Of a stretch of 64,000 bases of DNA, positions 41,047 through 64,000 are shown in pieces. Under the pieces are notes generated by a model that was given only the letters and a program-made list of their open reading frames with translations, was not told the origin of the DNA and searched no databases. The stretch comes from Oryzomonas japonica (GTDB lineage: Bacteria; Desulfobacterota; Desulfuromonadia; Geobacterales; Pseudopelobacteraceae): assembly GCF_008802365.1 (NCBI RefSeq), contig NZ_VZQZ01000011.1:129501-193500 (forward strand), in the 5' to 3' direction. How positions within the stretch are numbered: the first letter of the stretch is position 1; every line of letters begins with the position of its first letter. The position numbers were made by a program, and so were the translations under genes.

Positions 41047-41049
41047 AAG

Positions 41050-41826: not shown

Positions 41827-41870
41827 GGGAAAAGGAAAACCCGCTCAACCCTCGGAAGGGTGGGCGGGTT
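41827..41870 (-). terminator. rho-independent terminator downstream of the nifK-like gene
   Basis: On the minus strand, the GC hairpin AACCCGCCCACCC-TTCCGA-GGGTTGAGCGGGTT is followed by TTTTCCTTTTCC. Confidence 0.5.
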
Positions 41871-41916
41871 CACGATGCGACGTCTGGAGCGGTATCACCC
41901 CGGTGCCGGAAGGAGT

Positions 41917-44777: not shown

Positions 44778-44836
44778 GGTTGTTCCTTTCTCCGTTTTTC
44801 CAGATGTTTTCATCTCGTTCCCGCTCAGGTATGGCG

Positions 44837-46198: not shown

Positions 46199-46208
46199 GA
46201 CGGTCTCC

Positions 46209-46973: not shown

Positions 46974-46985
46974 GGGCTATTCCCT

Positions 46986-48035: not shown

Positions 48036-48072
48036 CTGATTCTCCTTTAAGTAATATGAAAATGGACTAAAG

Positions 48073-48975
48073 TTAGTTCCGCCACCTCAGTAAATGGCGT
48101 TCAAGCCGTTCCGTGCCGAAGGTAATGACCAGCACCACCAGACTTATGAAGATGATGCCCACGACCACCCGCGGGTAGTCGGCAAAGTCGGCGAAGTTCT
48201 TCACATACCAGCCGATGCCCGAGTTGGCCCCGATCAGTTCGGCGGCGGTCAACAGCACGAAGGCAAAGACCAGTGCAAGCGTAGCCCCGGTGCAGATGGA
48301 GGGCATGGCACCCGGCAGGATGACCCGCAGCAGCAAGGTATGCTCCTTCAAGCCCAGTACCCGGGCGGAGTCCAACAGCCCCTTGGGGATGTTGAAGACA
48401 CCGTTGACCGTGTTGATGAAAATGGGCCAAAAAGCGCCGATGAAGATCACGAAGATCGAGGCAGCACGGAAGCTCGGCAACAGGGCAATGGCGTAGGGAA
48501 TATAGACAATGGGCGGAATGGGCCCCAGCACCTTGGTGAACGGGTTGACGGCATGGAACAGGCGGACCCGCCAGCCGACCAGAAGCCCCAGCGGCAGGGC
48601 GGTTGCCACAGCCAGCAGATACCCGCTCACCAACAGGATCAGGGAGTTCACCAGCCCCTTGAGCATGTCCGGCAATTCGGCCACGAACAGCGTCAATACC
48701 GCTTCCGGCTGGGGGAAGAGCATCTTGTCCAGCACAATGAAGCGGGAGGTGGCCACGTACCATGCCAGAAGAATGGCAAGGATGATGGCGCTCACATCGC
48801 TGGATCCCCGACGCGATGCTTCATTTTTGACGGTAGCCAGCATGATCAGATCAATGGCCTTGACCACAATGGCCACGGTCAGGAGGTGCCAGGGGACCGG
48901 CCCCGCCGACGGCCAGAGAATGGCTGCCAGCAGGGTGATAAAGAGCAGGTTTGAAGTAGTTGTTACCTGGTTCAT
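48073..48975 (-). CDS. ABC transporter permease, NitT/TauT family (second)
   Basis: SsuC-type six-TM permease (LDSARVLGLKEHTLLLRVILPGAMP). Confidence 0.8.
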   Translation of the reverse strand: MNQVTTTSNLLFITLLAAILWPSAGPVPWHLLTVAIVVKAIDLIMLATVKNEASRRGSSDVSAIILAILLAWYVATSRFIVLDKMLFPQPEAVLTLFVAELPDMLKGLVNSLILLVSGYLLAVATALPLGLLVGWRVRLFHAVNPFTKVLGPIPPIVYIPYAIALLPSFRAASIFVIFIGAFWPIFINTVNGVFNIPKGLLDSARVLGLKEHTLLLRVILPGAMPSICTGATLALVFAFVLLTAAELIGANSGIGWYVKNFADFADYPRVVVGIIFISLVVLVITFGTERLERHLLRWRN

Positions 48976-49034
48976 GGGTTATATCCTGATAGGTATGAAT
49001 GTGCGGTTCCGAATCGCAGCCCTGGAATGCCTTC

Positions 49035-50063
49035 TCAATTGTTCTTTTTGTAGAAGCTCAGCATCTGCTGATAGACCTTGTCCTTAGGATTTTTCTTGAT
49101 GACCGAATCAAGCGCCTGCTTGTAGATGTCGGTGTTGATATGCTTATCGATCGGGTAGTCCTGAGGGATGTAGCCCGCTTCACGGATATGCTGCCAGAAA
49201 TCCAATATTCCCTTGCGGAGCGGGTCGGGGTTCGATTCGGACACCTTTTTCACGTACGTTTCATTGCGGACGATGCCTTCGTCGATCTTCAGGGACTTGG
49301 TATAGATCCTGACCGTCTCTTCGGGGTTGGTTTTATAGAACCTGTAGGCACGGATCAGCGCGGCCAGGAAACGGCGATAGGTATCCTTGTCGGCATTCAG
49401 TTTGGCCGTGGGGGCAACGATGCGGCAGCAGGTGTATTTGGGGTAGTATTCTTCAAGGTAGTGGGCAACCTTCAAGCCGCTGTTCTTCTCGGCCAGTGAA
49501 AAGTGAGGCGGCCACAGGAGTCCGGCATCCACAGAACCTTTCTTGATCGCCTCCACCACCGCCGTGGCCGAGCCCAGCTCAACGAACGTGATATCCTTTT
49601 TCCAGTCGATGCCGGCTTTTTTCAGGGCGCCCTTGAAGATGACATCACCGGTGGAAAGCTTCACTAGGCCGATCTTTTTCCCTTTGTAGACCTTGAGGTT
49701 TTTACCCGCAAGTTCGGCCAGACGATCCGGACGGGTGACAATGGCCTGTCCGCCGATCATCATGCCGCCGAAGAAGGTGAAGTCGGACCCTTTGGAAATG
49801 AACAACAGCGGCGCGGTGGTGCCGAAGGTGCCCACGTCCAGTTTTTCAGCCTTGAGCGCAGCTATGCCCTCGGAGGCGCTGCCGAACTGGAACAACTCCA
49901 CGTCAACCCCTTCTTCCTTGAAGTAGCCCTTTTCCTTGGCCACGAAGTACAACCCGTGGGCCGGCTCAGGGACATACCCCACCCGAAGCTTGGGCAGGTT
50001 CGCGGCAACAGCGACGGACATCATGAACATTGACAGCAGGAAAGCGGCGATGATCCTCTTCAT
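49035..50063 (-). CDS. ABC transporter substrate-binding protein (NMT1/SsuA-like, second)
   Basis: Signal peptide MKRIIAAFLLSMFMMSVAVAA. NMT1 fold. Confidence 0.75.
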   Translation of the reverse strand: MKRIIAAFLLSMFMMSVAVAANLPKLRVGYVPEPAHGLYFVAKEKGYFKEEGVDVELFQFGSASEGIAALKAEKLDVGTFGTTAPLLFISKGSDFTFFGGMMIGGQAIVTRPDRLAELAGKNLKVYKGKKIGLVKLSTGDVIFKGALKKAGIDWKKDITFVELGSATAVVEAIKKGSVDAGLLWPPHFSLAEKNSGLKVAHYLEEYYPKYTCCRIVAPTAKLNADKDTYRRFLAALIRAYRFYKTNPEETVRIYTKSLKIDEGIVRNETYVKKVSESNPDPLRKGILDFWQHIREAGYIPQDYPIDKHINTDIYKQALDSVIKKNPKDKVYQQMLSFYKKNN

Positions 50064-50881
50064 TGGGTACTACCTCCTTGTAACGTAAATAGTCTGCCGG
50101 AATTGGCCGGGCAGCAATTGGGCGTGCAGACCGCCTTGGAGAACAGCTCTTGCAGGACAGGGTCCATGGGACCAATCAACAGGCGATCCAGCGCATCACA
50201 GTAAATCTCTTCATAGACATGGTTTGCCAGGAAATCACCCGGCATAGCGGCATCCTGGAGGCCGAGCCCTTGCCAGATGCGGAGCATGCGCCAATAGTCA
50301 GGATTGGGGTCGAAATGGATATTCGGGACGGTTGCACCTTGCGATAGCTTCTGCAGCGTCGCCTGCCTGACTACCGGTGATTGTTGCTGCAACGTGCGGT
50401 GGGCCCGGATCAGGGCGGCGGTCAAGCCGATGATGGAGCCCTTTTCGGCCACCGGCCGGTTTGCCGGTACGAGCACGACAATCCCCCTGCGCTCCTGCTC
50501 ACCCTGGTGGTTTTCGTCCAGGCTTGCCAGCGGCCCCGTGTCGGTGGGGGTCCCGCCTCCGGCAATGATGCGAAATCCCTTTCCTTTGGCTATCTGCCCC
50601 AGCGCCTCTCCGACCATGAAGGCCCCGGCGTCGATGGAGCCCGCTTCAAGGGCGGCCAAGCCGCTGGCGGTATCCTGAAATTTGACCAGCTTGACCTGCA
50701 ATCCTTCTTCGCGAAAATGCCCGTGTGTTGCGGCAACGCGGCACAGGGCGCTGCCGGGGTGGTCCAGATAGCCCAAGCGGAAAAATTTTCCCGCCGCATG
50801 GCACGGCATGACGCCGGAGACCAGCAACAGTACCGCCATGAGAGACGGTGCCGCTATCCGGTGGACATGCCCGAAATTCAT
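50060..50881 (-). CDS. ABC transporter substrate-binding protein (NMT1-like, third, shorter)
   Basis: Signal peptide then KFFRLGYLDHPGSALCRVAA... Confidence 0.65.
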   Translation of the reverse strand: MNFGHVHRIAAPSLMAVLLLVSGVMPCHAAGKFFRLGYLDHPGSALCRVAATHGHFREEGLQVKLVKFQDTASGLAALEAGSIDAGAFMVGEALGQIAKGKGFRIIAGGGTPTDTGPLASLDENHQGEQERRGIVVLVPANRPVAEKGSIIGLTAALIRAHRTLQQQSPVVRQATLQKLSQGATVPNIHFDPNPDYWRMLRIWQGLGLQDAAMPGDFLANHVYEEIYCDALDRLLIGPMDPVLQELFSKAVCTPNCCPANSGRLFTLQGGSTQ

Positions 50882-51693
50882 ATCCCATCCCCCTGGGATG
50901 CGACTATCTGACCGGCATCCAGCTCGGAGAGGATGTTTTCGTACAGCACCGTGACCAGCCGGTCCCGCAGCGTCTGGAAGGTCTGGTTGTGGTACAGTTC
51001 CTGGCGGATGCGGGGACGGGGTAGGTCCACCTCGAATACTCCCTTTATGGTACCGGGATTGACACCCAGCACAACGATGCGGTTGGCCAGCAGGATGGCC
51101 TCCTCCACGTCGTGGGTAACGAAGAAGACGGTCTTGCGCTCGTCCTGCCGCTGCTGCCAGAGCTGGAGAAGCAGGTCCTGGAGCCGAGCGCGGGTGATGG
51201 CGTCCAGCGCGCCGAAGGGCTCATCCATCAGGAGCACCGGCGCGTTGATGGCAAAGGCCCGCGCAATGGCCGCCCGCTGGCGCATCCCGCCGGAAAGCAG
51301 GCCGGGGAGCTTGTCATAGGCATCCGCCAGGCCGACCATTTCCAGGTAGCCGGCCGCCGTCTCCCGGTACTCATCTTTCTTCTTTCCGGGGAAGGCCTGT
51401 TCCAGGGCCAGGACGATATTCTGCCCGGCGGTCATCCAGGGAAACAGGGAGTAATCCTGAAAGACCACGCCCCGGTCCAGGCCGGGACCGCTGATCTGCT
51501 TCCCGTCCAGGGTTATACCGCCTGACGACGGAAAGGAAAGGCCCGCCAGAAGCCGCAAGAGCGTGCTCTTGCCACAGCCGGACGGCCCCAGCAGGCAGAC
51601 GAAATCTCCCGGTTCGGCGGTAAAGGTGATGTCCTGTAGGACCCGTTGGTCACCGTAGGAATAATTGACGTTGGACAATGTTACTTCATACAT
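50878..51693 (-). CDS. ABC transporter ATP-binding protein (SsuB/TauB-like)
   Basis: Walker A LLGPSGCGKST, signature LSGGMRQR and Walker B LLMDEPF. Start at MYEVTLSNV. Confidence 0.85.
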   Translation of the reverse strand: MYEVTLSNVNYSYGDQRVLQDITFTAEPGDFVCLLGPSGCGKSTLLRLLAGLSFPSSGGITLDGKQISGPGLDRGVVFQDYSLFPWMTAGQNIVLALEQAFPGKKKDEYRETAAGYLEMVGLADAYDKLPGLLSGGMRQRAAIARAFAINAPVLLMDEPFGALDAITRARLQDLLLQLWQQRQDERKTVFFVTHDVEEAILLANRIVVLGVNPGTIKGVFEVDLPRPRIRQELYHNQTFQTLRDRLVTVLYENILSELDAGQIVASQGDGI

Positions 51694-51703
51694 GGAAATA
51701 TCC

Positions 51704-52360
51704 TCACAGATCCCGTTTATCGGCCAGCCGCTTGTAGTACGAGTGACTGGTGTACAGCGCGCCGACCGGGTTATGGGCCAGCACGCGGTCCTTGACCACA
51801 AGGTAGGTTACCGGCGCTTCGGAATATTTTATGAACATGGAATCGTGGCCGACACACAGGCCGACGATTATGTTCAAATCGGTTTTTTCCCTGGCCAGGA
51901 TGCGGGCCTGAAGCACCGGGTTGCAGGCCGATTCGTGCTGCCCTTTGTTGATCTTGAACTCTTCAGGAATACCCAATTCGGTCTTGTCCACCGAACCGAC
52001 CTTGCAGGCCACGGTATAGCTCTGGATTCCCTGGGCATCGAGAAACTTGATGAAGTTTTTGGTCTCGTTGATCAGGCCGACGCAGGTGGCGATGCCGACC
52101 TTCTTTGCCTTGATGCGGCGCGCAAAGGCGGCCACTTCCTCCACGCGGGTCAACCTGCCGTAGTAGGTCCCTTCGACCTCTGCGGCGGCGTTGGAAATTT
52201 TCGAAACCAACGGATCTTCGCGATAAATGCGGTTGACCTCCTCAATTTCCTGTTTATCCTCGGCCTCGGTCAGGCAGAAGGCGGGAAAAACGGAGGTCCG
52301 CGAGTTGCAGTTGATGGTGGCGCAGTCGCCACAGGTCAGTACGTTCTTTTTCTTGGCCAT
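51704..52360 (-). CDS. Cys-rich metal-binding protein, DUF1847-like
   Basis: LTCGDCATINCNSRTSVFPAFCLTEAE...GLCVGHDSMF is a DUF1847-type Cys pattern. 218 aa. Confidence 0.5.
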   Translation of the reverse strand: MAKKKNVLTCGDCATINCNSRTSVFPAFCLTEAEDKQEIEEVNRIYREDPLVSKISNAAAEVEGTYYGRLTRVEEVAAFARRIKAKKVGIATCVGLINETKNFIKFLDAQGIQSYTVACKVGSVDKTELGIPEEFKINKGQHESACNPVLQARILAREKTDLNIIVGLCVGHDSMFIKYSEAPVTYLVVKDRVLAHNPVGALYTSHSYYKRLADKRDL

Positions 52361-52388
52361 GATTCTCTCCGAAGTAGGGTATTTGCGA

Positions 52389-52522
52389 CTGTTGAAAAGC
52401 TCAGGTTGTTCAAAAATAGTCAGATCGTCGCACCCGGAGAAGGCCCTGAGGAGGCGTAGCAGCGCTACGCCGCACGAAAGGGCTTTCGAGGAGGGCGGCG
52501 AGATGGCTGTTTTTCAACAACC
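52389..52522 (+). repeat. MITE-like repeat, copy 4 (inserted inside the nif-like operon between the nifH-like and DUF1847 genes)
   Basis: Aligns end-to-end with copy 3. Confidence 0.8.
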
Positions 52523-52524
52523 TC

Positions 52525-53400
52525 TTAGATGCTTGCCCCGCTGCTGCGGACCTCCCCGGCCTCAACGGCCAGGATCTGATCGGACCAGTCGGCGGCCCAC
52601 TTGCGCAGCGCCTCCGCGCTCAGCGGCTCCGGCACCCTGGATTCCGTGTGGTTGGCGATCCGGTCGGCAAGCTTCTTATAGACCTGGGCCTGCTCGGAAT
52701 CGGGGAAGGCCTCGATGGTGGTCTTACCCTGCAACTCGGCCTGGGTGACGGTGATCGAACGAGGTACATACTCCATCACCTGGGTGTTGGTGCGTGCCAC
52801 GAAGTCGTCGATGATATGTTTGGCATAGGGTGCATTGACGGAGTTGGCGATCACGCCGCCCAAAAGTGCCCCACCGTTGTTGGAGTACTTCTTGATGCCG
52901 GTGAACAGATTGTTTGCGGCGTAAATGGCCATAAAGTCCGACGACGACACCGTGAAAACGTGCTCGGCGATCCCTTCCCGGATCGGTACGGCAAAGCCGC
53001 CGCAGACCACGTCCCCCAGGACATCGTAGATTACGTAATCCAGGTCCAGTTCCTCGAAAACCCGTTGCTGTTTGAGCAGCTCAATGGCGGTGATAATGCC
53101 GCGACCAGCGCAGCCGACCCCCGGCGCGGGGCCGCCGGCCTCCACGCAGTGGACGCCGTTGAAACCGGAGAAGACCACCTCGCTGGCCTTGGCGCTCTTC
53201 TTTTCCCGCAGGGTGTCAAGGATAGTGGGTATATAGTTGCCCCCCCGCAGGGTGACGGTGGAGTCGTTCTTGGGGTCGCAGCCGACCTGCATGACCTTGT
53301 AGCCTGCTACCGACAGGGCGGCGGTGATATTGGAGGTGGTGGTGGATTTACCGATGCCTCCCTTGCCATAGATCGCTATCTGTTTCGGTTTTTTTGCCAT
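52525..53400 (-). CDS. nitrogenase Fe-protein-like ATPase (NifH/BchL/CfbC/MarH family)
   Basis: P-loop [15 protein letters not shown], switch [10 protein letters not shown] and both 4Fe-4S ligand cysteines (GVGCAGRG; DVVCGGFA) are conserved. 291 aa. Confidence 0.85.
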
Positions 53401-53412
53401 CTGTTCCTCCGA

Positions 53413-53757
53413 TTATTTGATGTAGGTAAAACGCTTCGACGCCCGCAATGTTTCCAGGGCCTCGTCAATGGGGCCACCCATGGTGAAGGCCAGAATCCGG
53501 TGGCCGATGAGGGCGTCGATGGCGCCGGGGCCGACCTGGGCGGCCACGACCCCTCGGCAGTCGGAAATGAGTTGTGCCGCCTGGTCCAGAACATCGTCGT
53601 CGTGCTGCTGCCCCCCGCAGACCGGGGTATTTTTCCGCAGTTCCAGGAATTCATGCCCTTCGTCGTGCAGCCGGTAGATGCGGAAGGCCTGCGCCCTGCC
53701 GAAATGCTCGTTTATTGTCGTCCCGTCGCTGCTTGCCACGGCGATCTTTACATCCAT
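53413..53757 (-). CDS. dinitrogenase FeMo-cofactor-binding-like domain protein (NifX/NafY/NifB-C-terminal family)
   Basis: MDVKIAVASSDGTTINEHFGRAQAFRIY...VVAAQVGPGAIDALIGHRILAF matches the NifX/NafY-type domain. RBS GAGGAG upstream. Confidence 0.7.
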   Translation of the reverse strand: MDVKIAVASSDGTTINEHFGRAQAFRIYRLHDEGHEFLELRKNTPVCGGQQHDDDVLDQAAQLISDCRGVVAAQVGPGAIDALIGHRILAFTMGGPIDEALETLRASKRFTYIK

Positions 53758-53780
53758 GAGCCAGCTCCTCGTTGGGGTAG

Positions 53781-53834
53781 AAAATAAAAAAAGAGGTCAA
53801 GGTATGGGCGAAATTCTCGCCCAGCCTTGACCTC
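53781..53834 (-). terminator. strong intrinsic terminator/attenuator 24 nt upstream of the nifX-like start codon
   Basis: On the minus strand, the nested GC hairpin GAGGTCAAGG-CTG-GGCGAGAATTTCGCCC-ATAC-CCTTGACCTC is followed by TTTTTTTATTTT. Next come CTACCCCAACGAGGAGCTGGCTC and the ATG. Confidence 0.55.
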
Positions 53835-54129
53835 CAGTGTATCTGGTCGGCCGTTGCCGGTATGATTGTGTGAAGCTGAAACAGTTGGACAGAGTTCTTG
53901 ACTTAAGTGGTGTTGCTTAAGTGATGGTCAAGTTAACATTTACAGGTGGCTCCGTCAACAAAAAAATAATATTATGTCTATCTATTTTATATTTTATTTA
54001 AATATTCGTAGAAAAGTGGCAAAAACGCACCCGCTTTCAGACTCATTTTGTTGAGTAATCAAGGGGATAATCATTGAATGCGGAGAACGTGGCGCAAGCG
54101 CGGTTCAGCGGAGGGCGTACAGGGCCGGG

Positions 54130-54975
54130 CTACGTATTCAGAAAATGGGACAAAACCTGCTCCTTGAGACCCTGAACGGCAACAGTCTGATGCCGTCGCG
54201 GCCGGGGAACGTCAATGGCAACCCGACCACGAATCGCTCCAGGCGCAGGGGAAAAGACGTAGACCTCGTCGGACAGGCAGACCGCTTCGCCCACATCGTG
54301 AGTCGCCAGAACAATAGTTATGCCACTGGTTTCCCAGAGACGCACCAGATCGTCCTGGAGCTTTTCCCTGGTCAGGGCGTCAACGGCTGCAAAGGGCTCA
54401 TCCATTAGGATGATCCCGGGTTCCGCGGAAAAGGCCCGCGCCAGGGCCAGCCGCTGACGCATGCCGCCCGACATGTGGGCTGGGTAGCTGTTGGCGGCCT
54501 CCTCCAGTCCGACCATAGCCAGATAGTGGCGGGCCAGTTTTTCACGCTCACCCCGGGGGACGCCGCGCAGCCCCAAGACGAATTGTACGTTCTGGCGGGC
54601 GGTCATCCAGGGGAAGACGGCGTAGTCCTGAAAGATCATGGCGATGTCGTGCCGGGGTTTGTTGCGGAAGAGGCTGTTGGCGATGGGCGAGAGAAAGCGG
54701 TGTTTTTTGCGATACGCTTTAATCCCGGACGGTGTGTTGGGTAGCGGCTCCAAGAGCCGAGTCCCGTCGATGCGCACCTCGCCGTGGGACGGCGCCTGGA
54801 GACCGGCCAGAATTTCCAGGAAGGTGGACTTGCCGCAGCCGGTCGGACCGACCAGGGACACAAAGGCGCCGTCCCCGATGGTGAGCGACACCGACTGCAG
54901 CACCGTCTTGTCCGTCGTACGCCCCTGCCCGCTTGAAATGGGAAAGGTTTTGGTGATAGCGACCGCCTCGATCAT
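54130..54975 (-). CDS. ABC transporter ATP-binding protein (NitT/TauT family, second system)
   Basis: Walker A LVGPTGCGKST, signature MSGGMRQR and Walker B ILMDEPF. Confidence 0.85.
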   Translation of the reverse strand: MIEAVAITKTFPISSGQGRTTDKTVLQSVSLTIGDGAFVSLVGPTGCGKSTFLEILAGLQAPSHGEVRIDGTRLLEPLPNTPSGIKAYRKKHRFLSPIANSLFRNKPRHDIAMIFQDYAVFPWMTARQNVQFVLGLRGVPRGEREKLARHYLAMVGLEEAANSYPAHMSGGMRQRLALARAFSAEPGIILMDEPFAAVDALTREKLQDDLVRLWETSGITIVLATHDVGEAVCLSDEVYVFSPAPGAIRGRVAIDVPRPRRHQTVAVQGLKEQVLSHFLNT

Positions 54976-54979
54976 GGCG

Positions 54980-55822
54980 TCACCGTTCGATGCGCCATAC
55001 GGCCAGCTTCAACTCGGCGTATTTCATGATTTCGGTCATAAGCCATCCCGCCGCGCCCAGGATCAGCATGCAGACCACCATCCGGTCGATCTGAAAATAT
55101 TCCTTGCCCCGCAACAGCAAATAGCCTATTCCGCTGCCGCCGCTCTGCATTTCGGCCACCACCAACATGACCAGCCCCAGGGCGATGCCGATCCTGATCC
55201 CCATGATAACCGAACCAAGGGCGTGCCAGATATGGACGTGGGTGATGATGGTAAATTCACTGGCGCCAAAGACGCGGGCCGAGGCGATGTACCGGGGGTT
55301 GGTTTCACTGATTCCCTGGTAAGTACTAAACAACACCGGATAGAAAACCCCCAGGAAGATGAGGAATACCTGCATCGGCAGGCCGATACCCAGCACGATT
55401 ATGGTGACCGGCACCCAGGCCGGCGGCGGGATCGGCGCCAGGATCTGGAACAGAGGCAGGCAGTGCTTGCGGATGAACCGGTTCCACCCCATCACCACCC
55501 CGAGGGGAAAAGCGGTCGCCACCGCCAGGGCGAAGCCGAGCAAGAATCGGAGCGCGCTCTCGCCCAGGTGTGCCAGCAGGTGTTGTTTCTGAAACATCTG
55601 GCTGCAGGCGGAAACAAGTGTTGAGGGTGGCGGGACCAGGGATGCGGGCACCAGGCCGAGCAGGGGCAGGACCTCCCAGAAGATCAGCAGCGGAACCAAA
55701 ACGGTCAGGGATTCCCGGGACAACAGGCTGCCGAAGGATGACCGCCAGAAGAGCCGCACCTCAACCAACAGCCGCCGCCAGCGACCTTCAGCCTCACCCG
55801 CAATCAGCGGAGTACCAGGCAT
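54980..55822 (-). CDS. ABC transporter permease (NitT/TauT family, second system)
   Basis: SsuC-type permease (ISETNPRYIASARVFGASEFTIITHVHIWHAL). Confidence 0.8.
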   Translation of the reverse strand: MPGTPLIAGEAEGRWRRLLVEVRLFWRSSFGSLLSRESLTVLVPLLIFWEVLPLLGLVPASLVPPPSTLVSACSQMFQKQHLLAHLGESALRFLLGFALAVATAFPLGVVMGWNRFIRKHCLPLFQILAPIPPPAWVPVTIIVLGIGLPMQVFLIFLGVFYPVLFSTYQGISETNPRYIASARVFGASEFTIITHVHIWHALGSVIMGIRIGIALGLVMLVVAEMQSGGSGIGYLLLRGKEYFQIDRMVVCMLILGAAGWLMTEIMKYAELKLAVWRIER

Positions 55823-56718
55823 CGCCCATCTCCCAACTCCTTGCGCAGGTCATCGCCCACCGTCACGAAGTTTGCCGCCGGCAGCCGCTCCAGGTCTTCC
55901 CGGGAATAACCGAGCCTTTTGCTTACCGCCTTGCGTAGTTCGGCAGGGGGCAGTGCGCTGGCCGCCAAAAGGGACTGCACCACCGGCTTGAGCGCCTCCA
56001 CGGCCCCTCCCCTGACCACCAGAAAATAATCGCTCTGGGCCAGGGCCGCCGGGCAACATTCGTCGCCGGCCTTGATGTCCCAATTCTGGTAGAGCACCTT
56101 GTGCCCCAGATGCTCGGCGAGTACCGCGTAGGAGCCCTTTACCAGCACGGCATCGACCTTGCCCGCCTCCAGAGCGGGCACCATCTCGTCGAAAGACATG
56201 AATCGGGTATGTATGCGATCCACATCGACGCCCAGTCGCTTGGCGTCCCTCCTGAACTGGTGGAGCAGCTTGCAGTCCGGCTCCTGGGCCGCAATGGTCC
56301 TGCCGGCAAGATCCCCCAGGCGGATGTTCAGGTCCTTGCGGATCACCAGCGTCGCGCCGTAGGGAAACTGTACGGCCCCGGCCACCTTGAGGGTCTCGCC
56401 TCCGGGTGCCTTGAGCAGCTTGACCGCCTTGTTGGTCTCCACGAATCCGGCGTCGATCTTGCCCGAGATTAGGGAATAGCCGATGTCGCCACCACTACCG
56501 ATGGGGACCGCTTGCCAGGTGTGCGGCCGGCCTGTCTGGCGTTCATCGGCTGCGTAGATCGGTCCCAGCAGGGGGCTGTCCCCGTAGCCGATACGGAGCA
56601 CCGGTGACGACGAGGCGGAACCCTGGGGAGGATTCTGCTTTTGGCATGCCGCACACAGTAGTATCGTTGTGAAGAGCAGCGCAAACCATGGGGCACGTGA
56701 TTGTAGTTTCCGGTTCAT
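55804..56718 (-). CDS. ABC transporter substrate-binding lipoprotein (NMT1/SsuA-like)
   Basis: Lipobox LLCAAC. NMT1-like fold. Confidence 0.7.
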   Translation of the reverse strand: MNRKLQSRAPWFALLFTTILLCAACQKQNPPQGSASSSPVLRIGYGDSPLLGPIYAADERQTGRPHTWQAVPIGSGGDIGYSLISGKIDAGFVETNKAVKLLKAPGGETLKVAGAVQFPYGATLVIRKDLNIRLGDLAGRTIAAQEPDCKLLHQFRRDAKRLGVDVDRIHTRFMSFDEMVPALEAGKVDAVLVKGSYAVLAEHLGHKVLYQNWDIKAGDECCPAALAQSDYFLVVRGGAVEALKPVVQSLLAASALPPAELRKAVSKRLGYSREDLERLPAANFVTVGDDLRKELGDGRCLVLR

Positions 56719-56755
56719 CAGTTAGTAATCCTCCGCGGCTCCGTAGTGAATATGG

Positions 56756-57706
56756 TTAATGGACACGACCCCAGGTAATTCCCTTGAATGCTGGGGCATA
56801 CAGGTTATCCTTCGGGTTTTCCCGGATTTCCCTCAGGGACGCCAACTCCTCACCCAGGGTGTTTAAACCTTTTTCATTGATCCTGTCGCTAAACGTAAAA
56901 CGACGAGCGGCACGCGTGATCGCCTGCTGCGGCGCCCCGGTGTATTTCAGGGCTATCTCCGCGACCTGTCGGGAGGCAGGGGCTTTGTTGATAAAGCTAT
57001 TGGCCTCCCGGATGGCCGCGACCAGGCGCTTGAGCGCGTCCGGGTTTTCCTTGAGATAGGCCGTGCGTACATTGATGGTTCGGCAGGGGAACTTTTGGGG
57101 GGCATCTCGCAGGACCACCCGATATCCTTTGATCTCGGCAATGGCGAGGTGTGGGTCCTCCAGGATGGCGCCATCCACCTTGCCGGCATCCAGTGCAGCT
57201 ATGGCCTGCCCTCCGGCCAACTTTTCCAGGACAAAGCGGGCGCCGGTTTCACGGGCCTTTTTCTCGTAGGCAATGACCGCCTCGCAGGCCGGGGAACTGC
57301 CGGCAATGCGTTTCCCGTTCAAATCCTTGTAGGACTTGATGGGAGAACCTTTCGGAACGACGAGCAGCGAGGAGCAGGGGGCCTTGACCTGGGCAATTAT
57401 CTTGAGCGGTGCGCCGTTGGCGATGGCCGAGACAGCCACCGACGGGCACGACCAGAAAACATCGGCTTGGCCTGAGATCACCAAATCGCGGGCCAGGGCC
57501 GGGTCCCTGGCCTCCACAATGGCGACGTCAAGCCCGTGTTTCCGGAACAACCCGCGTTCCTGGGCCACATACAGGTTCAGGTGGTTGGTTGTTTTGGCGT
57601 CGGCAACGATGATTCTGGCGGGGGCAGCGCCCTGGCGGGCCGCGACAGCCCCCGCCAGGACCGCAGAAACGCCAACAACAATAATCCCGGTTCTCCACAT
57701 GCCCAT
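56756..57706 (-). CDS. ABC transporter substrate-binding protein (NMT1/SsuA-like, second of system 2)
   Basis: Signal peptide MGMWRTGIIVVGVSAVLAGAVAA. RBS AAGGGGA. Confidence 0.7.
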   Translation of the reverse strand: MGMWRTGIIVVGVSAVLAGAVAARQGAAPARIIVADAKTTNHLNLYVAQERGLFRKHGLDVAIVEARDPALARDLVISGQADVFWSCPSVAVSAIANGAPLKIIAQVKAPCSSLLVVPKGSPIKSYKDLNGKRIAGSSPACEAVIAYEKKARETGARFVLEKLAGGQAIAALDAGKVDGAILEDPHLAIAEIKGYRVVLRDAPQKFPCRTINVRTAYLKENPDALKRLVAAIREANSFINKAPASRQVAEIALKYTGAPQQAITRAARRFTFSDRINEKGLNTLGEELASLREIRENPKDNLYAPAFKGITWGRVH

Positions 57707-57734
57707 ATCGGTTTCCCCTTTGTTCCTGTTACCG

Positions 57735-59114
<1,380 letters not shown>

Positions 59115-60089
59115 CTAACGGGCTTCCGCCAATCGGGCACCTTGCGGCGCTCCCTGCGCCAGCGGGAGCGCGGTGTCTTTCGACCAGCCGATCCACGAAC
59201 TGTCGTAGTTGTGCAGCTTCTCCAGCGGCCAGCCGGCGAGGTACAGCGCAAAGAGTGCCTGGGTGGAGCGCACCCCGGACTGGCAGTAGAAGTACTGTTC
59301 CTTATTCCTGTCGTAGCCGAGCGTGTGCAGCAGGTGCTCAAGTTCGGCGGCATTCAGCCACTCGGCCTGATTATCCTTTTTCTTGAACAGTGCCCAGTTG
59401 CTGTGGTTGCTGCCCGGAATCCGGCCGGCGCGGTAGGCGCCCTTCTTCAGCTCCTCGCCGGTAAACTCCTTCAGGTCCCGGTTATCCCACAACTGGGCGG
59501 TTGCACTACCACGCTTGGCATTGATCTCAGGGGTATCAACCCGCAGCCGCGGCTCGGCGATGCGGGCGGCAAAACCACCTCTGCGGGCCCGGGCGTCCGG
59601 GGCCAGGATATCGACCGGATACCCGGCCGCACGCCACGCCTTGACGCCGCCGTCCAACACCCTGACATCCCTCTTCCCGTAATAGGTGAAGGCCCACCAG
59701 AGGCGGGTGGCGTCGTACTTTGTGTCATAGACCACCACAACAGAGTTCTGGTCGATACCGAGCCCCTGAGCCAATCTGCTGAAACCGGCGGCATCGATGA
59801 TATTGCCGGTGACGCCGTTCTGGGTCTCCGGGGGCGCCTCAATGGCCGGGCGATCCACCTGGCGCGAACCGGGGATGTGTCCCAGGCGGTATTCCACGTT
59901 GTTTTCAGCCGCCAGGATCACCAGTTTCGGGTTGTGGACATCGATCAAGCGCTTCAGTTCCTGGACGCTGATCAAAGCGTTCCCCCGGGGGTACCCCTTG
60001 TAGCCGGCCTCTCCGGCAAAGGCACTGGCCAGCGTCAGGTTCAGCAGGGCCAGGATCGTGAAAATAATACGGATCGGTTTTGTGTTCAT
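59115..60089 (-). CDS. periplasmic tandem-rhodanese sulfurtransferase (thiosulfate/3-mercaptopyruvate sulfurtransferase-like)
   Basis: Signal peptide. Two rhodanese modules. Active-site loop YCQSGVRS. Confidence 0.75.
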   Translation of the reverse strand: MNTKPIRIIFTILALLNLTLASAFAGEAGYKGYPRGNALISVQELKRLIDVHNPKLVILAAENNVEYRLGHIPGSRQVDRPAIEAPPETQNGVTGNIIDAAGFSRLAQGLGIDQNSVVVVYDTKYDATRLWWAFTYYGKRDVRVLDGGVKAWRAAGYPVDILAPDARARRGGFAARIAEPRLRVDTPEINAKRGSATAQLWDNRDLKEFTGEELKKGAYRAGRIPGSNHSNWALFKKKDNQAEWLNAAELEHLLHTLGYDRNKEQYFYCQSGVRSTQALFALYLAGWPLEKLHNYDSSWIGWSKDTALPLAQGAPQGARLAEAR

Positions 60090-60224
60090 GGCACGTCTCC
60101 TTTTGAATGGAAAAAGGCCGGGAAATGCCCATGATTATGGGACATTGAACCCGGCCTCCGGTTTTTCCGGTCAGCACAGAATCGTTTGTCGCAGGCCGTG
60201 GGGGCCTGTTCTGTAGTTACGGGC

Positions 60225-60770
60225 TTACGCCCGGTCCATCTGGTAGATGGCAGCCACCGCATGGCTGCGGTAATAATGGCTGATGCGCCGCAGGCCATGG
60301 GGCGCCAGAAGGGTATCGAGTTCCTCGTGGGTAAGGGTCTTGGAGCATTCCGCACACGAGAAATAGTCGTTGCAGGTCGTGTCGCAGCGTTCCTGCGGCT
60401 TGCGGCACCGCACCTCCATCAACAGGTAACCGCCCGGCCTCAGGTTGGCGACGGCGTTTTTCAGGTAGGCGTGCCGTTCGGCGCTGTTCATGATGATGTT
60501 GAACACATAGGTGGACAGCACCAGATCCACGTTCAGGTCGCTGCGGGGCAGTTCATCGGTGGCAAGCAGGCGCTCCACATGGTGAATGGCCGGACACCCT
60601 TCCAGCTTCTCCACCTGTTCCGGCAGGTCGGCGGCATAGACCTGAAACCCTTCCTGTGCCAGGTAAAGGGCGTTGCGCATGGTGCCGGTCCCGTAGTCCA
60701 GAACCTTCGCGGCATTCTGTTTTTTGAAGAAACGACTATAACGTTTCACACTCTCGGCTACGGCTGCCAT
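60225..60770 (-). CDS. class I SAM-dependent methyltransferase (small, TehB/thiol-methyltransferase-like)
   Basis: VLDYGTGTMRNALYLAQEGFQVYAADL is SAM-binding motif I. 181 aa. Confidence 0.65.
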   Translation of the reverse strand: MAAVAESVKRYSRFFKKQNAAKVLDYGTGTMRNALYLAQEGFQVYAADLPEQVEKLEGCPAIHHVERLLATDELPRSDLNVDLVLSTYVFNIIMNSAERHAYLKNAVANLRPGGYLLMEVRCRKPQERCDTTCNDYFSCAECSKTLTHEELDTLLAPHGLRRISHYYRSHAVAAIYQMDRA

Positions 60771-61105
60771 TGCGCCCCCCTTGTTTAAAATATAATAACT
60801 ATAAATTTAATAGATTAATAACATGCAGAAACAAAACCTGTCAAGAAGAATAATCGACATATCCCTTAAGCAGGCATGTTTTGACCGAAATCCCATTGTC
60901 TCCACAAAACCGGTTCAACACCCGGTTGCCTGCCAAGTCCACAACACTCACCTGATGATGCCACGTTCCACCCCTTGCTGTAGATGGCACAACACTTCAA
61001 ATGCAGCTTTCTGGCTGATGGTACGGTTTTTTGAATTACATTGATCGTTTTTATTAATTATATCAATTGGACTGTCGTTTCGAATTAGGTTAGTTTACCA
61101 ACGAT

Positions 61106-61181
61106 GGGCACATAGCTTAGCTGGTAGAGCAGCCGACTCTTAATCGGCAGGTCGTCGGTTCGATCCCGACTGTGCCCACCA
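61106..61181 (+). tRNA. tRNA-Lys (anticodon CTT)
   Basis: Acceptor GGGCACA/TGTGCCC, D-arm GCTT-AGCTGGTA-GAGC, anticodon stem GCCGA/TCGGC with loop CTCTTAA, T-arm GTCGG-TTCGATC-CCGAC, discriminator A plus CCA. Confidence 0.85.
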
Positions 61182-61232
61182 TCTCTTCCCGCCACACTTC
61201 CCTACGCAACGCTATCACCTGCGACCTTACGG

Positions 61233-62105
61233 TCAAATCGCAGCCCCATCGGTAACCAGGCCGTTTTCAAGAGCATAGATCCGGTCTCCCCACGTTCGCG
61301 CCCATGCCCGCAGTTCTTCGGGCTGCATCGGCACAGACGGGCCCGGCTGGGACGCAGCCTCGTCAACGATCTGATTGGCCAGTCTGCGGTAGAAATAGGA
61401 CTGGTTGGAGAGGGGCGACGCCTCGATGACGGTCTTGCCGTACAGTTCGCACTGTCTGACCATCAGGGAGCGGGGGATGCGCCCCATGGTGCGGGTGCGG
61501 GTCTGAACGGCAAAATCGGCGATAAACGATTCCTCGAACGAACTGCTGATGCTGTTGGGGATCAGTCCGCCCACCGGTACCGGCACATTCGATTCGCCAT
61601 AACGGTCCAACATCTTGAAGATGGCGTTGGCGGCATGCAGCGACATGAAATCGGCCGTTGTCACCACAAACACCCGCCGGACCCCGATCTGCTGGACCGG
61701 GGTATAGAAGCTGGAGCAGGTGCTGTCGCCGGAGATGTCGTAGAGCACGAAGTCAGGAGCGACGGCCTCGAACAGGTCGATCCTCTTCAGTTCTGCAAGC
61801 GCGCGGGCTATCTCGGACGATCCGCATTGGCCCGAGCCGAACGGATCACCCAACTCGACGCAGGTGACCCCCTTGAACCCCTTGTGGGCAACGGCATCAA
61901 CAGAGATCTCGCCCCGTTCCCGCAAAAGATCGAACACCGTCGGGATGGGATCGCCGTTGTTGAGGAGGCTGCACGAGTCGCCTTTCGGGTCACATCCAAC
62001 CTGCAGGACGCTGAAACCGGCTTCTGCCAGGGCGGCGCTGAGGTTGGAGGTCAAGGTGGATTTGCCCACTCCCCCCTTGCCGTATAATGCGATGTGTTCT
62101 GTCAT
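61233..62105 (-). CDS. divergent NifH-like P-loop ATPase lacking both canonical 4Fe-4S ligand cysteines
   Basis: P-loop LYGKGGVGKSTLTSN and switch GCDPKGDS are retained. The CAGRG motif is replaced by GSGQCGSS and VVCGGF by DSTCSSF. The C-terminus (RAWARTWGDRIYALENGLV) is collinear with the 52525..53400 NifH-like protein. Confidence 0.75.
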   Translation of the reverse strand: MTEHIALYGKGGVGKSTLTSNLSAALAEAGFSVLQVGCDPKGDSCSLLNNGDPIPTVFDLLRERGEISVDAVAHKGFKGVTCVELGDPFGSGQCGSSEIARALAELKRIDLFEAVAPDFVLYDISGDSTCSSFYTPVQQIGVRRVFVVTTADFMSLHAANAIFKMLDRYGESNVPVPVGGLIPNSISSSFEESFIADFAVQTRTRTMGRIPRSLMVRQCELYGKTVIEASPLSNQSYFYRRLANQIVDEAASQPGPSVPMQPEELRAWARTWGDRIYALENGLVTDGAAI

Positions 62106-62287
62106 GGGTCGCCTCGTTTCCCATCCGGCAATCCGTCGCGGGACTCCGAACGTTTGAAAAGCAAGAGGCCGGGGCTGCCCATGGAAGGGACATGAACCCC
62201 GGCCTCCGGTTTATCCGGTCAGCGCGGAAAAGATGATTGATCGTTGTTCAAAGTTGCGAACGGAACCCCGTCGCCGCCGTTTGAGGA

Positions 62288-62470
62288 TTAAATCCCGCCG
62301 CCGTCCACATATCCGGTTTTGTTGAGCCGGATCTTCTCGCTCTTGTCTACCTGGATCACCCGGCCGTCCTGCACCACCAGGGTCACCGTGCCGAAACGGA
62401 TCGAGCTCAGCGCCTCACGCACGACCTGCTCCAGATCCCGGCTCCATGGTTCAGGGGGCGGGGCGGCCAT
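62288..62470 (-). CDS. YezD/DUF2292 family small protein
   Basis: FGTVTLVVQDGRVIQVDKSEKIRL matches the YezD signature. Start overlaps the cysK stop. Confidence 0.65.
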   Translation of the reverse strand: MAAPPPEPWSRDLEQVVREALSSIRFGTVTLVVQDGRVIQVDKSEKIRLNKTGYVDGGGI

Positions 62471-63423
62471 CAGATGCCCTCGAACAGCGGCGTGGAGAGG
62501 TAGCGTTCAGCCGCGTCGGGAAGGATGGCGACAATGGTCTTGCCGGCAAATTCGTCCAGTTTGGCGAGTCGCACCGCGGCGGCAGCCGCGGCACCGCTGG
62601 AGATACCCACCAGGAGGCCTTCTTCGCGGGACAGCCGCTTGGCGAATTCGATGGCTTCGTTGCTCTCCACCGGTTCGACCCGGTCGATTACCTTGAGGTC
62701 AAGGGTGTCGGGGATGAAACCGGCGCCGATGCCCTGGATCTTGTGGGGAGCCGGTTTAATTGCCTGGCCGGCCAAAAACTGGGTGATGACCGGGCTCTCC
62801 TTGGGCTCCACCGCCACGGAGATGATCTTCTTCCCCTTGGTGTTCTTGATGTACCGGGAGATGCCGGTGATGGTGCCGCCGGTGCCGACCCCCGCCACGA
62901 CCACGTCCACTGCGCCGTCCGTGTCGTTCCAGATCTCAGGGCCGGTGGTCTTCTCGTGGATCTCCGGGTTGGCCGGGTTCTTGAACTGCTGGGGGATGAA
63001 GTATTTCTTGGGATCGGAGGCGGCGATCTCCTCGGCCTTGGCAATGGCCCCTTTCATCCCTTCGGCACCCGGGGTGAGGATCAGGTTGGCACCCAGGGCG
63101 GCCAATACCCGGCGGCGTTCGATGCTCATGGTCTCGGGCATGGTCAGGGTCAGTTTGTAGCCCCGGGCCGCAGCCACGTAGGCCAAAGCGATGCCGGTGT
63201 TGCCGCTGGTCGGCTCGATGATCTCCACGCCCGGCTTGAGCACCCCGCGCTTCTCGGCATCCCAGATCAGGTTGGCCCCGATGCGGCACTTGACCGAGTA
63301 GGCCGGGTTGCGCCCTTCGACCTTCACCAGGACCGTGGCCTTGGCCCCGTCAACGACGTGGTTCAGTTTGATCAGCGGTGTGTTACCGATGGATTGGGAG
63401 TTGTCTGCGTAGATGGTGCTCAT
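62470..63423 (-). CDS. cysK: cysteine synthase A (O-acetylserine sulfhydrylase)
   Basis: PLP Lys motif (NPAYSVKCR), [10 protein letters not shown] and [10 protein letters not shown]. Confidence 0.9.
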
Positions 63424-63485
63424 GGTTATTCTCCTTTCAGATGTTTACTGCCTATAGAAATACTAGATAAAAAGGGCAAAAAAAT

Positions 63486-63947
63486 TCAGATGCTGAAATC
63501 CAGCACGTTTGCCCGCTTGCTCCGCTCGGTCTCGCTTCGCTCAAGCATGTCCGCTAGGGTCAGGCTGTCCAGCACCTGGGCCAGGGCCTTGTTGACATCC
63601 ACCATCACCAGCCGGATGCCGCAGATTGCCTCGTCGTCGCATTCGTCGCACTTGGCGTAGTTGGTCTCGCTCAAGCACTGCACCGGCGCCAAGTCACCCT
63701 CAAGGATCCGTACCACGCTGCCCAGGGTAATCTTGGCAGGCGGGGAGGCCAGGTAGTAGCCGCCCCCCTTGCCGATCCTGCTCTGGAGGATGCCCCCCTT
63801 GCGCAGGGACAGGAGGATGAACTCCAGAAACTTCTTGGGGATGTTCCCGGCCTTGGCCAGGTCCGAAATCAATACCGGCTGGGAGGTGGGCTGCCCGGCC
63901 AGATGATAGAGCGCCTTAAGCGCGTATTTGGTCTTTTTCGATATCAT
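63486..63947 (-). CDS. Rrf2-family transcriptional regulator (CymR/IscR-like)
   Basis: N-terminal Rrf2 HTH (SKKTKYALKALYHLAGQ...ISDLAKAGNIPKKFLEFILLSLRKGGIL). C-terminal Cys cluster (CDECDDEAIC) suggests Fe-S sensing. Confidence 0.8.
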   Translation of the reverse strand: MISKKTKYALKALYHLAGQPTSQPVLISDLAKAGNIPKKFLEFILLSLRKGGILQSRIGKGGGYYLASPPAKITLGSVVRILEGDLAPVQCLSETNYAKCDECDDEAICGIRLVMVDVNKALAQVLDSLTLADMLERSETERSKRANVLDFSI

Positions 63948-64000
63948 GTCTAGTTGAACTATAGATAAAATAAATATACCCGGACGTCAAGGACTTTTTT

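Follow-up and report, generated by a model that had tools for sequence, protein, structure and literature searches.

A Nitrogenase-Like Operon Related to Methylthio-Alkane Reductase in a Mosaic Block of Sulfur Genes and Predicted Leader RNAs of Oryzomonas japonica

Introduction

The acquisition of sulfur from organic compounds by anaerobic bacteria is poorly known. Described here is a 22 kb block of the Oryzomonas japonica genome in which an operon for a nitrogenase-like enzyme, NflHDK, lies next to cysK, metY and other sulfur-related genes. The block is part of a stretch of 64,000 nucleotides (assembly GCF_008802365.1, contig NZ_VZQZ01000011.1, positions 129,501–193,500, forward strand), which is referred to throughout as the window and to which all coordinates apply. 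Gene identities were assigned from a listing of open reading frames (ORFs) together with Pfam and NCBIfam profile searches using curated equivalog cutoffs. Loci from relatives and metagenomes are designated by L numbers where they need to be told apart.

To our knowledge, methylthio-alkane reductase (MAR) and isethionate reductase (ISR), both from purple bacteria, are the only nitrogenase-like enzymes with assigned substrates. The Mar loci of Rhodopseudomonas palustris and the Isr locus of Rhodobacter capsulatus contain metY, sulfonate transporters, rhodanese and cysE genes and are induced by sulfur limitation, and one report (PMC12552129) gives methanethiol as a product of MAR. Dos Santos et al. 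(2012) had observed nitrogenase-like genes containing Cys275 beside genes for O-acetylhomoserine sulfhydrylase and cysteine synthase, and named Geobacter sp. FRC-32 among the cases; the pairing of a nitrogenase-like enzyme with metY and cysK is already in the literature and is not new. Mar-like genes have also been linked to non-selenium corrinoid methyltransferase (mlp) clusters (Kountz and Balskus). A 2026 review calls the link between Group IV enzymes and sulfur "tantalizing" and finds genetic context of little help in the identification of substrates.

Gene Content of the Locus

The upstream part of the block begins with a gene for a 153-residue Rrf2-family regulator (63486–63947; Pfam Rrf2, 127 bits), followed by cysK, encoding an O-acetylserine sulfhydrylase of 317 residues (62470–63423; TIGR01139, 469 bits, above the cutoff of 351), and by a gene for a 60-residue DUF2292/YezD-family protein (62288–62470), the start of which overlaps the cysK stop. 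The next gene, nifH2, encodes a divergent MarH-like Fe-protein paralogue of 290 residues (61233–62105; 235 bits to the nifH model, below its cutoff of 394). Beyond it lie genes for an S-adenosylmethionine (SAM)-dependent methyltransferase of 181 residues (60225–60770; Methyltransf_23, weakly TehB-like), a tandem-domain rhodanese of 324 residues whose N-terminus resembles a signal peptide and whose active-site loop reads CQSGVRS (59115–60089), and MetY, an O-acetylhomoserine sulfhydrylase/homocysteine synthase of 429 residues (57735–59024; NF006096, 729.1 bits against a cutoff of 726; TIGR01326, 687.5 against 495). The rhodanese is 100% identical to an O. japonica sulfurtransferase, 92% identical to that of O. 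sagensis and 89% identical to that of Geobacter sp. FeAm09. Importer 1, a NitT/TauT-type ABC importer (54130–57778), is made up of two SsuA-family binding proteins (protein a, 56756–57778, with its true start probably at 57706; protein b, 55804–56718, a weak SsuA/NMT1 match), a permease (54980–55822) and an ATPase (54130–54975).

The nif-like operon itself opens with a gene for a NifX-like cofactor carrier of 114 residues (53413–53757) and continues with those for NflH, a MarH-type Fe protein of 291 residues (52525–53400), and a Cys-rich DUF1847 protein of 218 residues (51704–52360). A second ABC importer follows (46209–51801), with an ATPase whose true start is near 51693, three SsuA-family binding proteins and two permeases, so that a total of five SsuA/TauA-family binding proteins are encoded in or beside the operon. 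The operon is completed by genes for a QueG/RdhA-like protein with two 4Fe-4S motifs (44837–46252; 452 residues from the start at 46198), NflD (43257–44813, probable start 44777) and NflK, a protein of 447 residues (41917–43260), and is bordered by a gene for an HPP membrane protein (41050–41616). All of these genes are on the minus strand.

The eleven protein genes that the initial annotation had named between the Rrf2 gene and importer 1 were all recovered at the same coordinates and on the minus strand by the ORF listing and the profiles. Its statement that every gene is on the minus strand is correct for the protein genes and fails for a tRNA-Lys(CTT) gene on the plus strand (61106–61181). 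The 462-bp gap that separates nifH2 from the methyltransferase gene contains this tRNA gene. The other intergenic gaps measure 182, 135, 90 and 372 bp, and gaps of this size indicate at least three mRNA transcription units in addition to the tRNA gene. The gaps contain two promoter-like sites, recognized by eye, and three leaders with terminators. A scan of the window for consensus promoters and terminators gave counts at chance level and was not used as evidence.

The Nitrogenase-Like Enzyme

Searches of a structural database place all three components of the enzyme closest to MAR. The best matches of NflD are the MarD chains 9fmg_A and 9d9u_A (E 1e-66), followed by a nitrogenase alpha chain (E 5e-35), while NflK best matches the MarK chain 9d9u_C (E 9e-80) and NflH scores 487 bits against MarH (9fmg_D) compared with 279 bits against true NifH. 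The 9FMG entry is the MarDK2H2 complex of Rhodospirillum rubrum. With MarD, MarK and MarH as the best solved-structure matches, the earlier proposal of a C–S-cleaving nitrogenase-like enzyme is supported in so far as the enzyme is related to MAR.

The residues that bind metal clusters in MAR were compared across the clade. NflH has the Walker A motif and both [4Fe-4S] cysteines (Cys97 and Cys133 in MarH), and includes the sequence DVVCGGF. In NflD, the P-cluster residues Cys65, Cys90 and Cys157, as well as Cys287, which aligns exactly with the L-cluster ligand Cys270 of MarD, are invariant in 120–121 of 121 clade members. The three P-cluster cysteines of NflK, in the motifs YVCALGG, SGCAG and TGCVTEVIGDD, align with those of MarK. 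Based on the conserved P-cluster cysteines, the Cys270 equivalent and a histidine close to the position of MarD His429, NflDK is predicted to resemble MAR, and to differ from ISR, in having both a P-type and an L-type cluster.

The NflD clade, as defined by pairwise identity and not by a tree, is internally 66–95% identical and falls outside the MarD clade by this measure. It spans the Geobacteraceae (Geobacter sp. SVR, Geotalea, Geomonas, Geomesophilobacter and G. hydrogenophilus) and is also found in Firmicutes (Clostridia, Desulfitobacteriaceae, Syntrophobotulus and Pelotomaculum). One Geobacteraceae metagenome-assembled genome (MAG; L006) contains a second NflDK that is more Mar-like (353 bits and 39% identity to MarD) with a radical-SAM gene adjoining it, and the presence of this second cluster indicates that the NflDK type of the window is a distinct paralogous lineage. 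On sequence grounds, the nif-like enzyme is best described as a relative of the C–S-cleaving MAR that belongs to a separate clade without marB. Assignment as a bona fide nitrogenase was rejected, as the scores of 151.6 bits to the nifD model and 86 bits to the nifK model are below the respective cutoffs of 653.6 and 427.

The main mechanistic rival is a sulfonate reductase of the ISR type, which would release sulfite, rather than a thioether reductase releasing methanethiol. Such an enzyme would account for the five SsuA/TauA-family binding proteins and the two NitT/TauT importers, given that the volatile substrates of MAR do not obviously need import, and it would fit both the assimilatory sulfite reductase gene found just downstream in a close relative (L034) and the strong similarity of the R. 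capsulatus Isr locus, with its ssuABC, tauABC, cysteine desulfurase, cysE and rhodanese genes. However, IsrDK lacks most of the P-cluster cysteines and the Cys270 and His429 ligands, retaining only NifD Cys88 and three NifK cysteines; in the NflD clade the P-cluster cysteines and the Cys270 equivalent are invariant, as is a histidine one residue from the His429 position. These residues and the lack of an IsrB-type radical-SAM gene at the locus led to rejection of a Group IV-F assignment. Furthermore, the gene that accompanies the operon in Oryzomonas and FeAm09 is metY and not sulfite reductase, and the R. palustris Mar loci also have sulfonate-type transporters, so the transporters do not discriminate between the two chemistries. 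A sulfonate reductase at this locus is considered unlikely.

Several additional features of the operon were recorded. The QueG-like protein (452–471 residues) belongs to no Pfam family, has a weak match to QueG (epoxyqueuosine reductase) and carries its two 4Fe-4S motifs at the C-terminus; its gene immediately precedes nflD in Oryzomonas, FeAm09, L005 and L034 and is absent in Geobacter sp. SVR. In an Oryzomonas sp. MAG, a 953-residue "nitrogenase component 1" (P0266) brings together proteins of NflD length (506 residues) and NflK length (447 residues) in one 90% cluster, which suggests an NflD–NflK fusion or an assembly frameshift. DUF1847 was tried as a synteny marker and set aside, because most of the 30 loci had neither nif-like nor sulfur neighbours and only those of Geobacteraceae were informative; no literature on DUF1847 was found.

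The Fe-Protein Paralogue NifH2

The second Fe-protein gene of the block, nifH2, encodes a protein that is 43% identical to NflH and has MarH as its top structural-database match (E 4.5e-73, compared with E 6e-46 for NifH). The NifH2 of the window retains the Walker A motif and both cluster cysteines. Of 121 members of the NifH2 family, 87 keep the P-loop lysine, 66 the Cys97 equivalent and 69 the Cys132 equivalent, corresponding to losses of the lysine in about 28% of members and of each [4Fe-4S] cysteine in about 45%. Arg100 is kept in none of the 121 and the CGGF switch-II motif has decayed. The decay of cluster ligands and P-loop across the family points to a nitrogenase Fe-protein paralogue that is drifting away from electron transfer. 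Despite this decay, nifH2 keeps a stable linkage with either cysK-DUF2292 or the methyltransferase and rhodanese genes, and the leader motif described below precedes it in Oryzomonas, FeAm09, L006 and L038.

Synteny of the Block

The block may be divided into three putative modules. Module A, rrf2-cysK-DUF2292-nifH2, would be a conserved cysteine-synthesis module under an Fe–S-type Rrf2 protein; module B would consist of the small SAM methyltransferase gene; and module C/D would combine rhodanese-metY-importer 1 with nifX-nflH-DUF1847-importer 2-QueG-like-nflD-nflK.

In O. sagensis, the gene order is identical to that of the window, with 92% DNA identity over 14.8 kb (49135–63925). A different arrangement is found in FeAm09, the closest complete genome, where window segments 61049–64000 (87% identity) and 38132–41618 (85%) are only about 270 bp apart and the order Rrf2-CysK-DUF2292-NifH2-tRNA-Lys leads directly to the HPP gene. 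About 19.4 kb (41619–61048) is missing from this site in FeAm09, and the right boundary, near 61049, adjoins the tRNA-Lys gene. The stretch from the nflK stop to the rhodanese leader (41917–60177) is present in FeAm09 as a contiguous block with 86–90% DNA identity at 2.49–2.52 Mb. The cysK module, at 2.616 Mb, is approximately 100 kb away, and this block does not include the methyltransferase gene. An integrase-mediated island at the tRNA-Lys gene was considered and rejected, because the additional DNA lies 5' of the tRNA and the annotated genes between 41 and 64 kb include no integrase.

More distant relatives preserve parts of the block in other combinations. Geobacter sp. SVR largely keeps the order: a corrinoid methyltransferase (mlp-type) cluster and nifH2-methyltransferase-rhodanese-importer 1 are followed by cysK-DsrE-TusA-SrpI encapsulin-cysteine desulfurase-cysE, and then by nifX-nflH-importer 2-DUF1847-nflDK with an integrase and a transposase at the end. 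On metagenome contig L034, the NflD of which is 95% identical, metY is directly before nifX, and genes for DsrE, CysE, two SrpI encapsulins, cysteine desulfurase, TusA, CysK and sulfite reductase come after nflK. The 20 kb examined in Geobacter sp. AOG1 and in L038 contains the cysK-DUF2292-nifH2 core but no nflDK. The core of AOG1 is headed by the Rrf2 gene and lies beside genes for sulfate transport and activation, and that of L038 has a sigma-54 response regulator upstream in place of Rrf2. Since module A is distant from the enzyme or found elsewhere in FeAm09, AOG1 and L038, coupling of CysK to the enzyme would be at the level of a regulon at best.

The initial annotation had regarded the 22 kb as a single organosulfur acquisition island. 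This idea is contradicted by FeAm09, in which module A is core DNA beside tRNA-Lys and the HPP gene while rhodanese through nflK is some 100 kb away, and by the plus-strand tRNA gene that splits the block in the window. The expectation of conserved synteny in relatives that carry the nif-like genes fared better in one part than in the other, as the linkage of rhodanese-metY-importer 1 with nifX...nflDK is kept in O. sagensis, FeAm09, SVR and L034 and that of the Rrf2-cysK module is kept only in part. By this comparison, the 22 kb is a mosaic and not one island: the unit that travels with the enzyme is leader-rhodanese-metY-importer 1-nifX...nflDK, about 18 kb that relocates as a whole, and rrf2-cysK-DUF2292-nifH2 is an older module in its own right that adjoins this unit in some genomes. 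In the closest relatives metY always travels with the nif-like operon.

Further observations concern the make-up of these loci. A family-2 encapsulin (SrpI-like, cNMP-binding) with a long cysteine desulfurase, TusA, DsrE and cysE is found beside the nif-like operon in L034 (14448–19395), L036 (1–2965) and L037 (18337–20867). In SVR (L037, 274–4978 and 7774–8838), a corrinoid protein, three URO-D-type methyltransferases and a RACo activase make up a type 1 mlp cluster directly upstream of nifH2-methyltransferase-rhodanese, with several copies of the leader motif within it. Copies of a MITE-like element, roughly 135 bp long, bounded by the terminal inverted repeats AGGTTGTTGAAAAACAG...CTATTTTTGAACAACCT and 90–96% identical to one another, lie at 17405–17601, 19358–19492, 22253–22385 and 52389–52528 of the window; the last of these sits between nflH and DUF1847, where the gap in FeAm09 is 22 bp.

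A rival explanation is that the sulfur genes are accidental neighbours of a nitrogenase-like operon with some other role, for example in the maturation of a cofactor or tetrapyrrole or in a reduction connected with nitrogen. This explanation would fit the 100 kb separation of Rrf2-cysK-DUF2292-nifH2 from the operon in FeAm09, the rearrangement of the region evident from the plus-strand tRNA and the MITE-like insertion, and the occurrence of DUF1847 in many genomes with no nflDK nearby. Nevertheless, the series from rhodanese, metY and importer 1 to nifX...nflDK is contiguous in every close relative examined, and distant relatives swap in sulfur genes (cysE, cysK, DsrE, TusA, the cysteine desulfurase encapsulin and sulfite reductase) and never genes of nitrogen or tetrapyrrole metabolism. 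The same leader motif also stands ahead of nif-like and sulfur genes alike, and the nearest characterized enzyme is a C–S reductase. A coincidental neighbourhood is accordingly regarded as improbable. A role in the salvage or detoxification of methyl-selenides or tellurium compounds, hinted at by weak NCBIfam matches to TehB (tellurite methyltransferase), ExtH (rhodanese of selenite/tellurite operons) and SaoX/SaoB (binding proteins of selenium operons) and by the mlp cluster that adjoins the block in SVR, most such clusters being selenium-linked, is very improbable given that the scores are far under the cutoffs (TehB, 34–37 bits against 218–303; ExtH, 72 against 200; SaoX, 56 against 300), that the block showed neither selD, selA or selB genes nor signatures of selenoproteins, that the mlp clade tied to Mar-like genes by Kountz and Balskus is the non-selenium one, and that the conserved partners are CysK, MetY, CysE and sulfite reductase. 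Both of these explanations are less likely than the sulfonate-to-sulfite alternative discussed above.

A Conserved Leader RNA

Three copies of a conserved leader element are found in the window, all on the minus strand within the block. The first copy (62156–62230; 71.2 bits) is 50 nt before nifH2, the second (60105–60182) is between the methyltransferase and rhodanese genes at the left end of the block common to FeAm09, and the third (53784–53858) is 27 nt before nifX, downstream of a promoter-like AT-rich region. Each leader is composed of the sequence GCUGA, a 4-bp hairpin (CCGG/CCGG or CCAG/CUGG) with an A-rich loop of 4–5 nt, the sequence AGG and a terminator hairpin, the 5' arm of which begins at the AGG and the 3' arm of which ends in CCU, followed by a U-tract. 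A ribosome-binding site and a start codon are located 10–50 nt past the leader. An 18-nt pattern taken from the leader gives these three copies in the window compared with 0.05 expected by chance, and the three regions have folding z-scores of -2.0, -3.2 and -5.0.

A covariance model built from 13 copies identified 32 strong sense-strand copies in the sulfur loci of relatives. In the alignment of these 32 copies, 98.3% of cells are paired, and neither this pairing nor the covariation was reached by any of 500 shuffles; sliding the pairing partners against each other drops the pairing to 18–59%. The orthologous leaders in FeAm09 and O. sagensis carry the motif, as do loci L001, L002, L004, L006, L007, L010–L012, L034, L036–L038, L040, L041 and L042–L121. 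The commonest 19-mer of the leader occurs in at least 120 metagenome stretches, and 67 of 81 occurrences among the matches listed are followed by a terminator-like hairpin and a U-tract according to a strict script. Likewise among the matches listed, the covariance model gave 93 matches across 80 metagenome loci, often with several per locus, and copies that the 19-mer had not picked display the further compensatory variants CCUG/CAGG, CUGG/CCAG and CUAG/CUAG. One metagenome contig has two copies in direct tandem (L046, 485–541 and 544–603).

The position of the motif has also been considered. In several loci it starts 10–25 nt past a sigma-70-like -10 hexamer, as judged by eye, and both leaders of divergent intergenic regions contain it (L006, 5357–5416 and 5591–5659; L010). 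The presence of the motif on both sides of divergent gaps argues that it is a leader element and not merely the terminator of the preceding gene. The ORFs following 70 metagenomic copies, again among the matches listed, encode NifH-family proteins (6), NifX (4), M6 peptidases (4), OmpW (3), SsuA/NMT1 binding proteins (3), corrinoid proteins (3), MetK (2) and radical-SAM proteins (2), with one each of MetY, CysK, a URO-D methyltransferase, DrsE and a glycyl-radical enzyme. The element is widespread ahead of sulfur and methionine genes of anaerobes, and the genes that follow it show enrichment of the NifH-like, NifX, corrinoid-protein, MetK, MetY, CysK, SsuA-type binding-protein and M6 peptidase types.

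No Rfam family gave a sense-strand match to the conserved part of the motif at the gathering threshold or at E values up to 5–10, and the Rfam searches gave only tRNAs and chance hairpin matches. No matching sulfur-linked riboswitch was found in the literature searched. A conserved upstream antiterminator was not detected either, as complementarity to the terminator arm measured 6.28 nt compared with 6.15 nt in shuffled sequences. From its structure and placement the motif is read as a conditional terminator, the effector of which may be a small ligand or an antiterminator protein.

The shared leader before nifH2, rhodanese and nifX suggests that these three units are co-regulated. The leader does not directly cover cysK and metY, which would be reached by read-through; the co-regulation of the whole block claimed in the initial annotation is therefore favoured for the three units with leaders and is not directly indicated for cysK and metY. 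More broadly, and tentatively, the leaders may represent an undescribed, widespread class of attenuator RNA for sulfur or methionine limitation that is read by a ligand or an antiterminator and coordinates nitrogenase-like C–S reductases, mlp clusters, MetK, MetY and CysK, SsuA-type importers and secreted M6 peptidases across Desulfuromonadota and Firmicutes, with the enzyme described here as a functionally new Group IV reductase acting on an imported, non-volatile organosulfur substrate.

The Rrf2 Regulator and a Candidate Operator

The Rrf2 protein had been called CymR-like, a label that did not hold: its score to the CymR equivalog NF047409 is 74.7 bits, below the cutoff of 195, and four of its cysteines are clustered (C90, C99, C102 and C108). 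Since such clustered cysteines are typical of Fe–S Rrf2 regulators, the sequence points to an Fe–S-sensing type of Rrf2 protein rather than CymR. The earlier yezD call stands at the level of the family, as the small protein is within DUF2292/YezD (Pfam, 62.8 bits against a cutoff of 22); identity with OscA was rejected (equivalog NF033785, 33.1 bits, below the cutoff of 85).

A near-palindrome, ATCTAT-N7-ATAGAT, is a candidate operator for the Rrf2 protein, and no more than that. Matches are found directly upstream of rrf2 (63948–63966, 2 mismatches), upstream of cysK (63450–63468, 3 mismatches) and just downstream of the -10-like hexamer of the methyltransferase promoter (60797–60815, 1 mismatch). 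Related boxes adjoin rrf2 and cysK in AOG1, L004, L006, L007 and L038, and another, in FeAm09, is some 250 bp upstream of the leader of the rhodanese gene. Some of the sites that the pattern matches had themselves been used to derive it.

Elsewhere in the window, a 698-residue protein encoded on the plus strand (15280–17376) contains PAS and GGDEF domains as well as a periplasmic binding domain resembling NMT1/SsuA and is possibly a solute-sensing diguanylate cyclase.

Proposed Function of the Locus

Taken together, the block is probably a mosaic sulfur-limitation locus of three modules in which C–S cleavage of organosulfur compounds feeds MetY and CysK. Starting from the gene identities, cluster-ligand conservation, synteny and RNA motif described above, its working can be pictured as follows, with the inducing signal, substrate and product as the conjectural elements. 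First, sulfur limitation would derepress promoters with the ATCTAT-N7-ATAGAT box, and the terminator-type leaders before nifH2, rhodanese and nifX would permit read-through. Next, the two SsuA-type importers would take in one or more polar organosulfur compounds. The MarH-like Fe protein NflH would then pass electrons to NflDK with hydrolysis of ATP, and NflDK, bearing a P-cluster and an L-like [Fe8S9C] cluster that may be made by the housekeeping NifB of the cell and delivered by the NifX-like carrier, would reductively cleave a C–S bond. Finally, the reduced sulfur product, methanethiol or sulfide, would be captured by MetY and CysK, and the putatively secreted rhodanese may mobilize sulfane sulfur outside the cytoplasm. 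O-acetylhomoserine sulfhydrylase, according to a 2020 paper in Science, reportedly uses methanethiol. Any parts played by NifH2, the DUF1847 protein, the QueG-like protein and the methyltransferase are likewise inferred.

Several observations weigh against this proposal. NflD is only 32% identical to MarD (BLASTP), far below the 52–65% shared by MarDK1, MarDK2 and NflDK3 of R. palustris, and consequently the substrate may differ greatly from that of MAR. The conserved NflD histidine, His439, is invariant in 121 of 121 clade members but falls one residue off MarD His429 in both alignments. There is no Radical_SAM protein of the NifB/MarB type among the ORFs of 41–64 kb, and a radical-SAM gene is likewise absent from the nif-like operon in L034, L036 and L039–L041, which in the window opens with the NifX-like carrier and not with marB; NifB is known to be able to substitute for MarB. 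With regard to gene neighbourhood, module A is about 100 kb from the enzyme in FeAm09 and is accompanied by sulfate-assimilation or unrelated genes in AOG1 and L038. The export of the rhodanese was judged from its N-terminal sequence alone, and the operator box is not significant in the window by itself (12 matches with up to 3 mismatches, compared with 7.6 expected).

Comparison with Known Systems

The closest known system is MarBHDK of R. rubrum (Group IV-C; PDB 9FMG and 9D9U), together with Mar1, Mar2 and NflDK3 of R. palustris. These share with the window a three-component H/D/K enzyme, metY, a nifX-like gene and sulfonate-type transporters nearby, and the retention of the P-cluster cysteines and Cys270, and a similar role in anaerobic sulfur acquisition would be expected. 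In contrast to the Mar loci, the locus of the window has no marB, has the importer, DUF1847 and the QueG-like Fe–S protein embedded between the H and DK genes, and belongs to Desulfuromonadota in a clade reaching Firmicutes. Its regulation appears to involve an Rrf2 protein and RNA attenuators rather than the LysR-type SalR.

IsrBHDK of R. capsulatus (Group IV-F) resembles the block in being a sulfur-starvation locus with ssu/tau importers, rhodanese, cysE and a cysteine desulfurase paired with an SrpI-type "major membrane protein" (the sufS2 pair), partners that are also found in relatives of the window. It differs in the cluster ligands discussed above and in IsrB, a BciD-like radical-SAM protein that is absent here. 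The CymR–CysK pair of Bacillus and OscA/YezD are comparable in that an Rrf2 gene lies beside cysK and the DUF2292 gene is translationally coupled to it; the window proteins nonetheless score below both equivalog cutoffs, and the regulator has its four Fe–S-type cysteines. Finally, the HMP-PP "thiS" riboswitch and RAT/LicT-type antitermination also use a short conserved element that abuts or overlaps the base of a terminator in 5' leaders and intercistronic gaps, whereas the leader described here has a different sequence and fold and is associated with sulfur and methionine genes rather than those for thiamin or sugars.

Significance

In the literature searched, no description was found of the architecture of this clade (importers, DUF1847 and the QueG-like protein inside the operon, with no marB), of the limits of the mobile unit, of the degenerate NifH paralogue or of the leader RNA. 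The comparison of FeAm09, Oryzomonas and SVR delimits the genes that truly travel with the enzyme, and the retention of a degenerate NifH paralogue beside cysK is an evolutionary oddity. Of these features, the RNA motif promises the most: if confirmed, the leader would provide a compact marker for an anaerobic sulfur-limitation regulon and a candidate for a new riboswitch or antitermination system. For the organisms themselves, the locus represents a well-conserved, uncharacterized, Mar-related clade in iron-reducing Geobacteraceae and Firmicutes, the dedicated importers and binding proteins of which offer a handle on the substrate.

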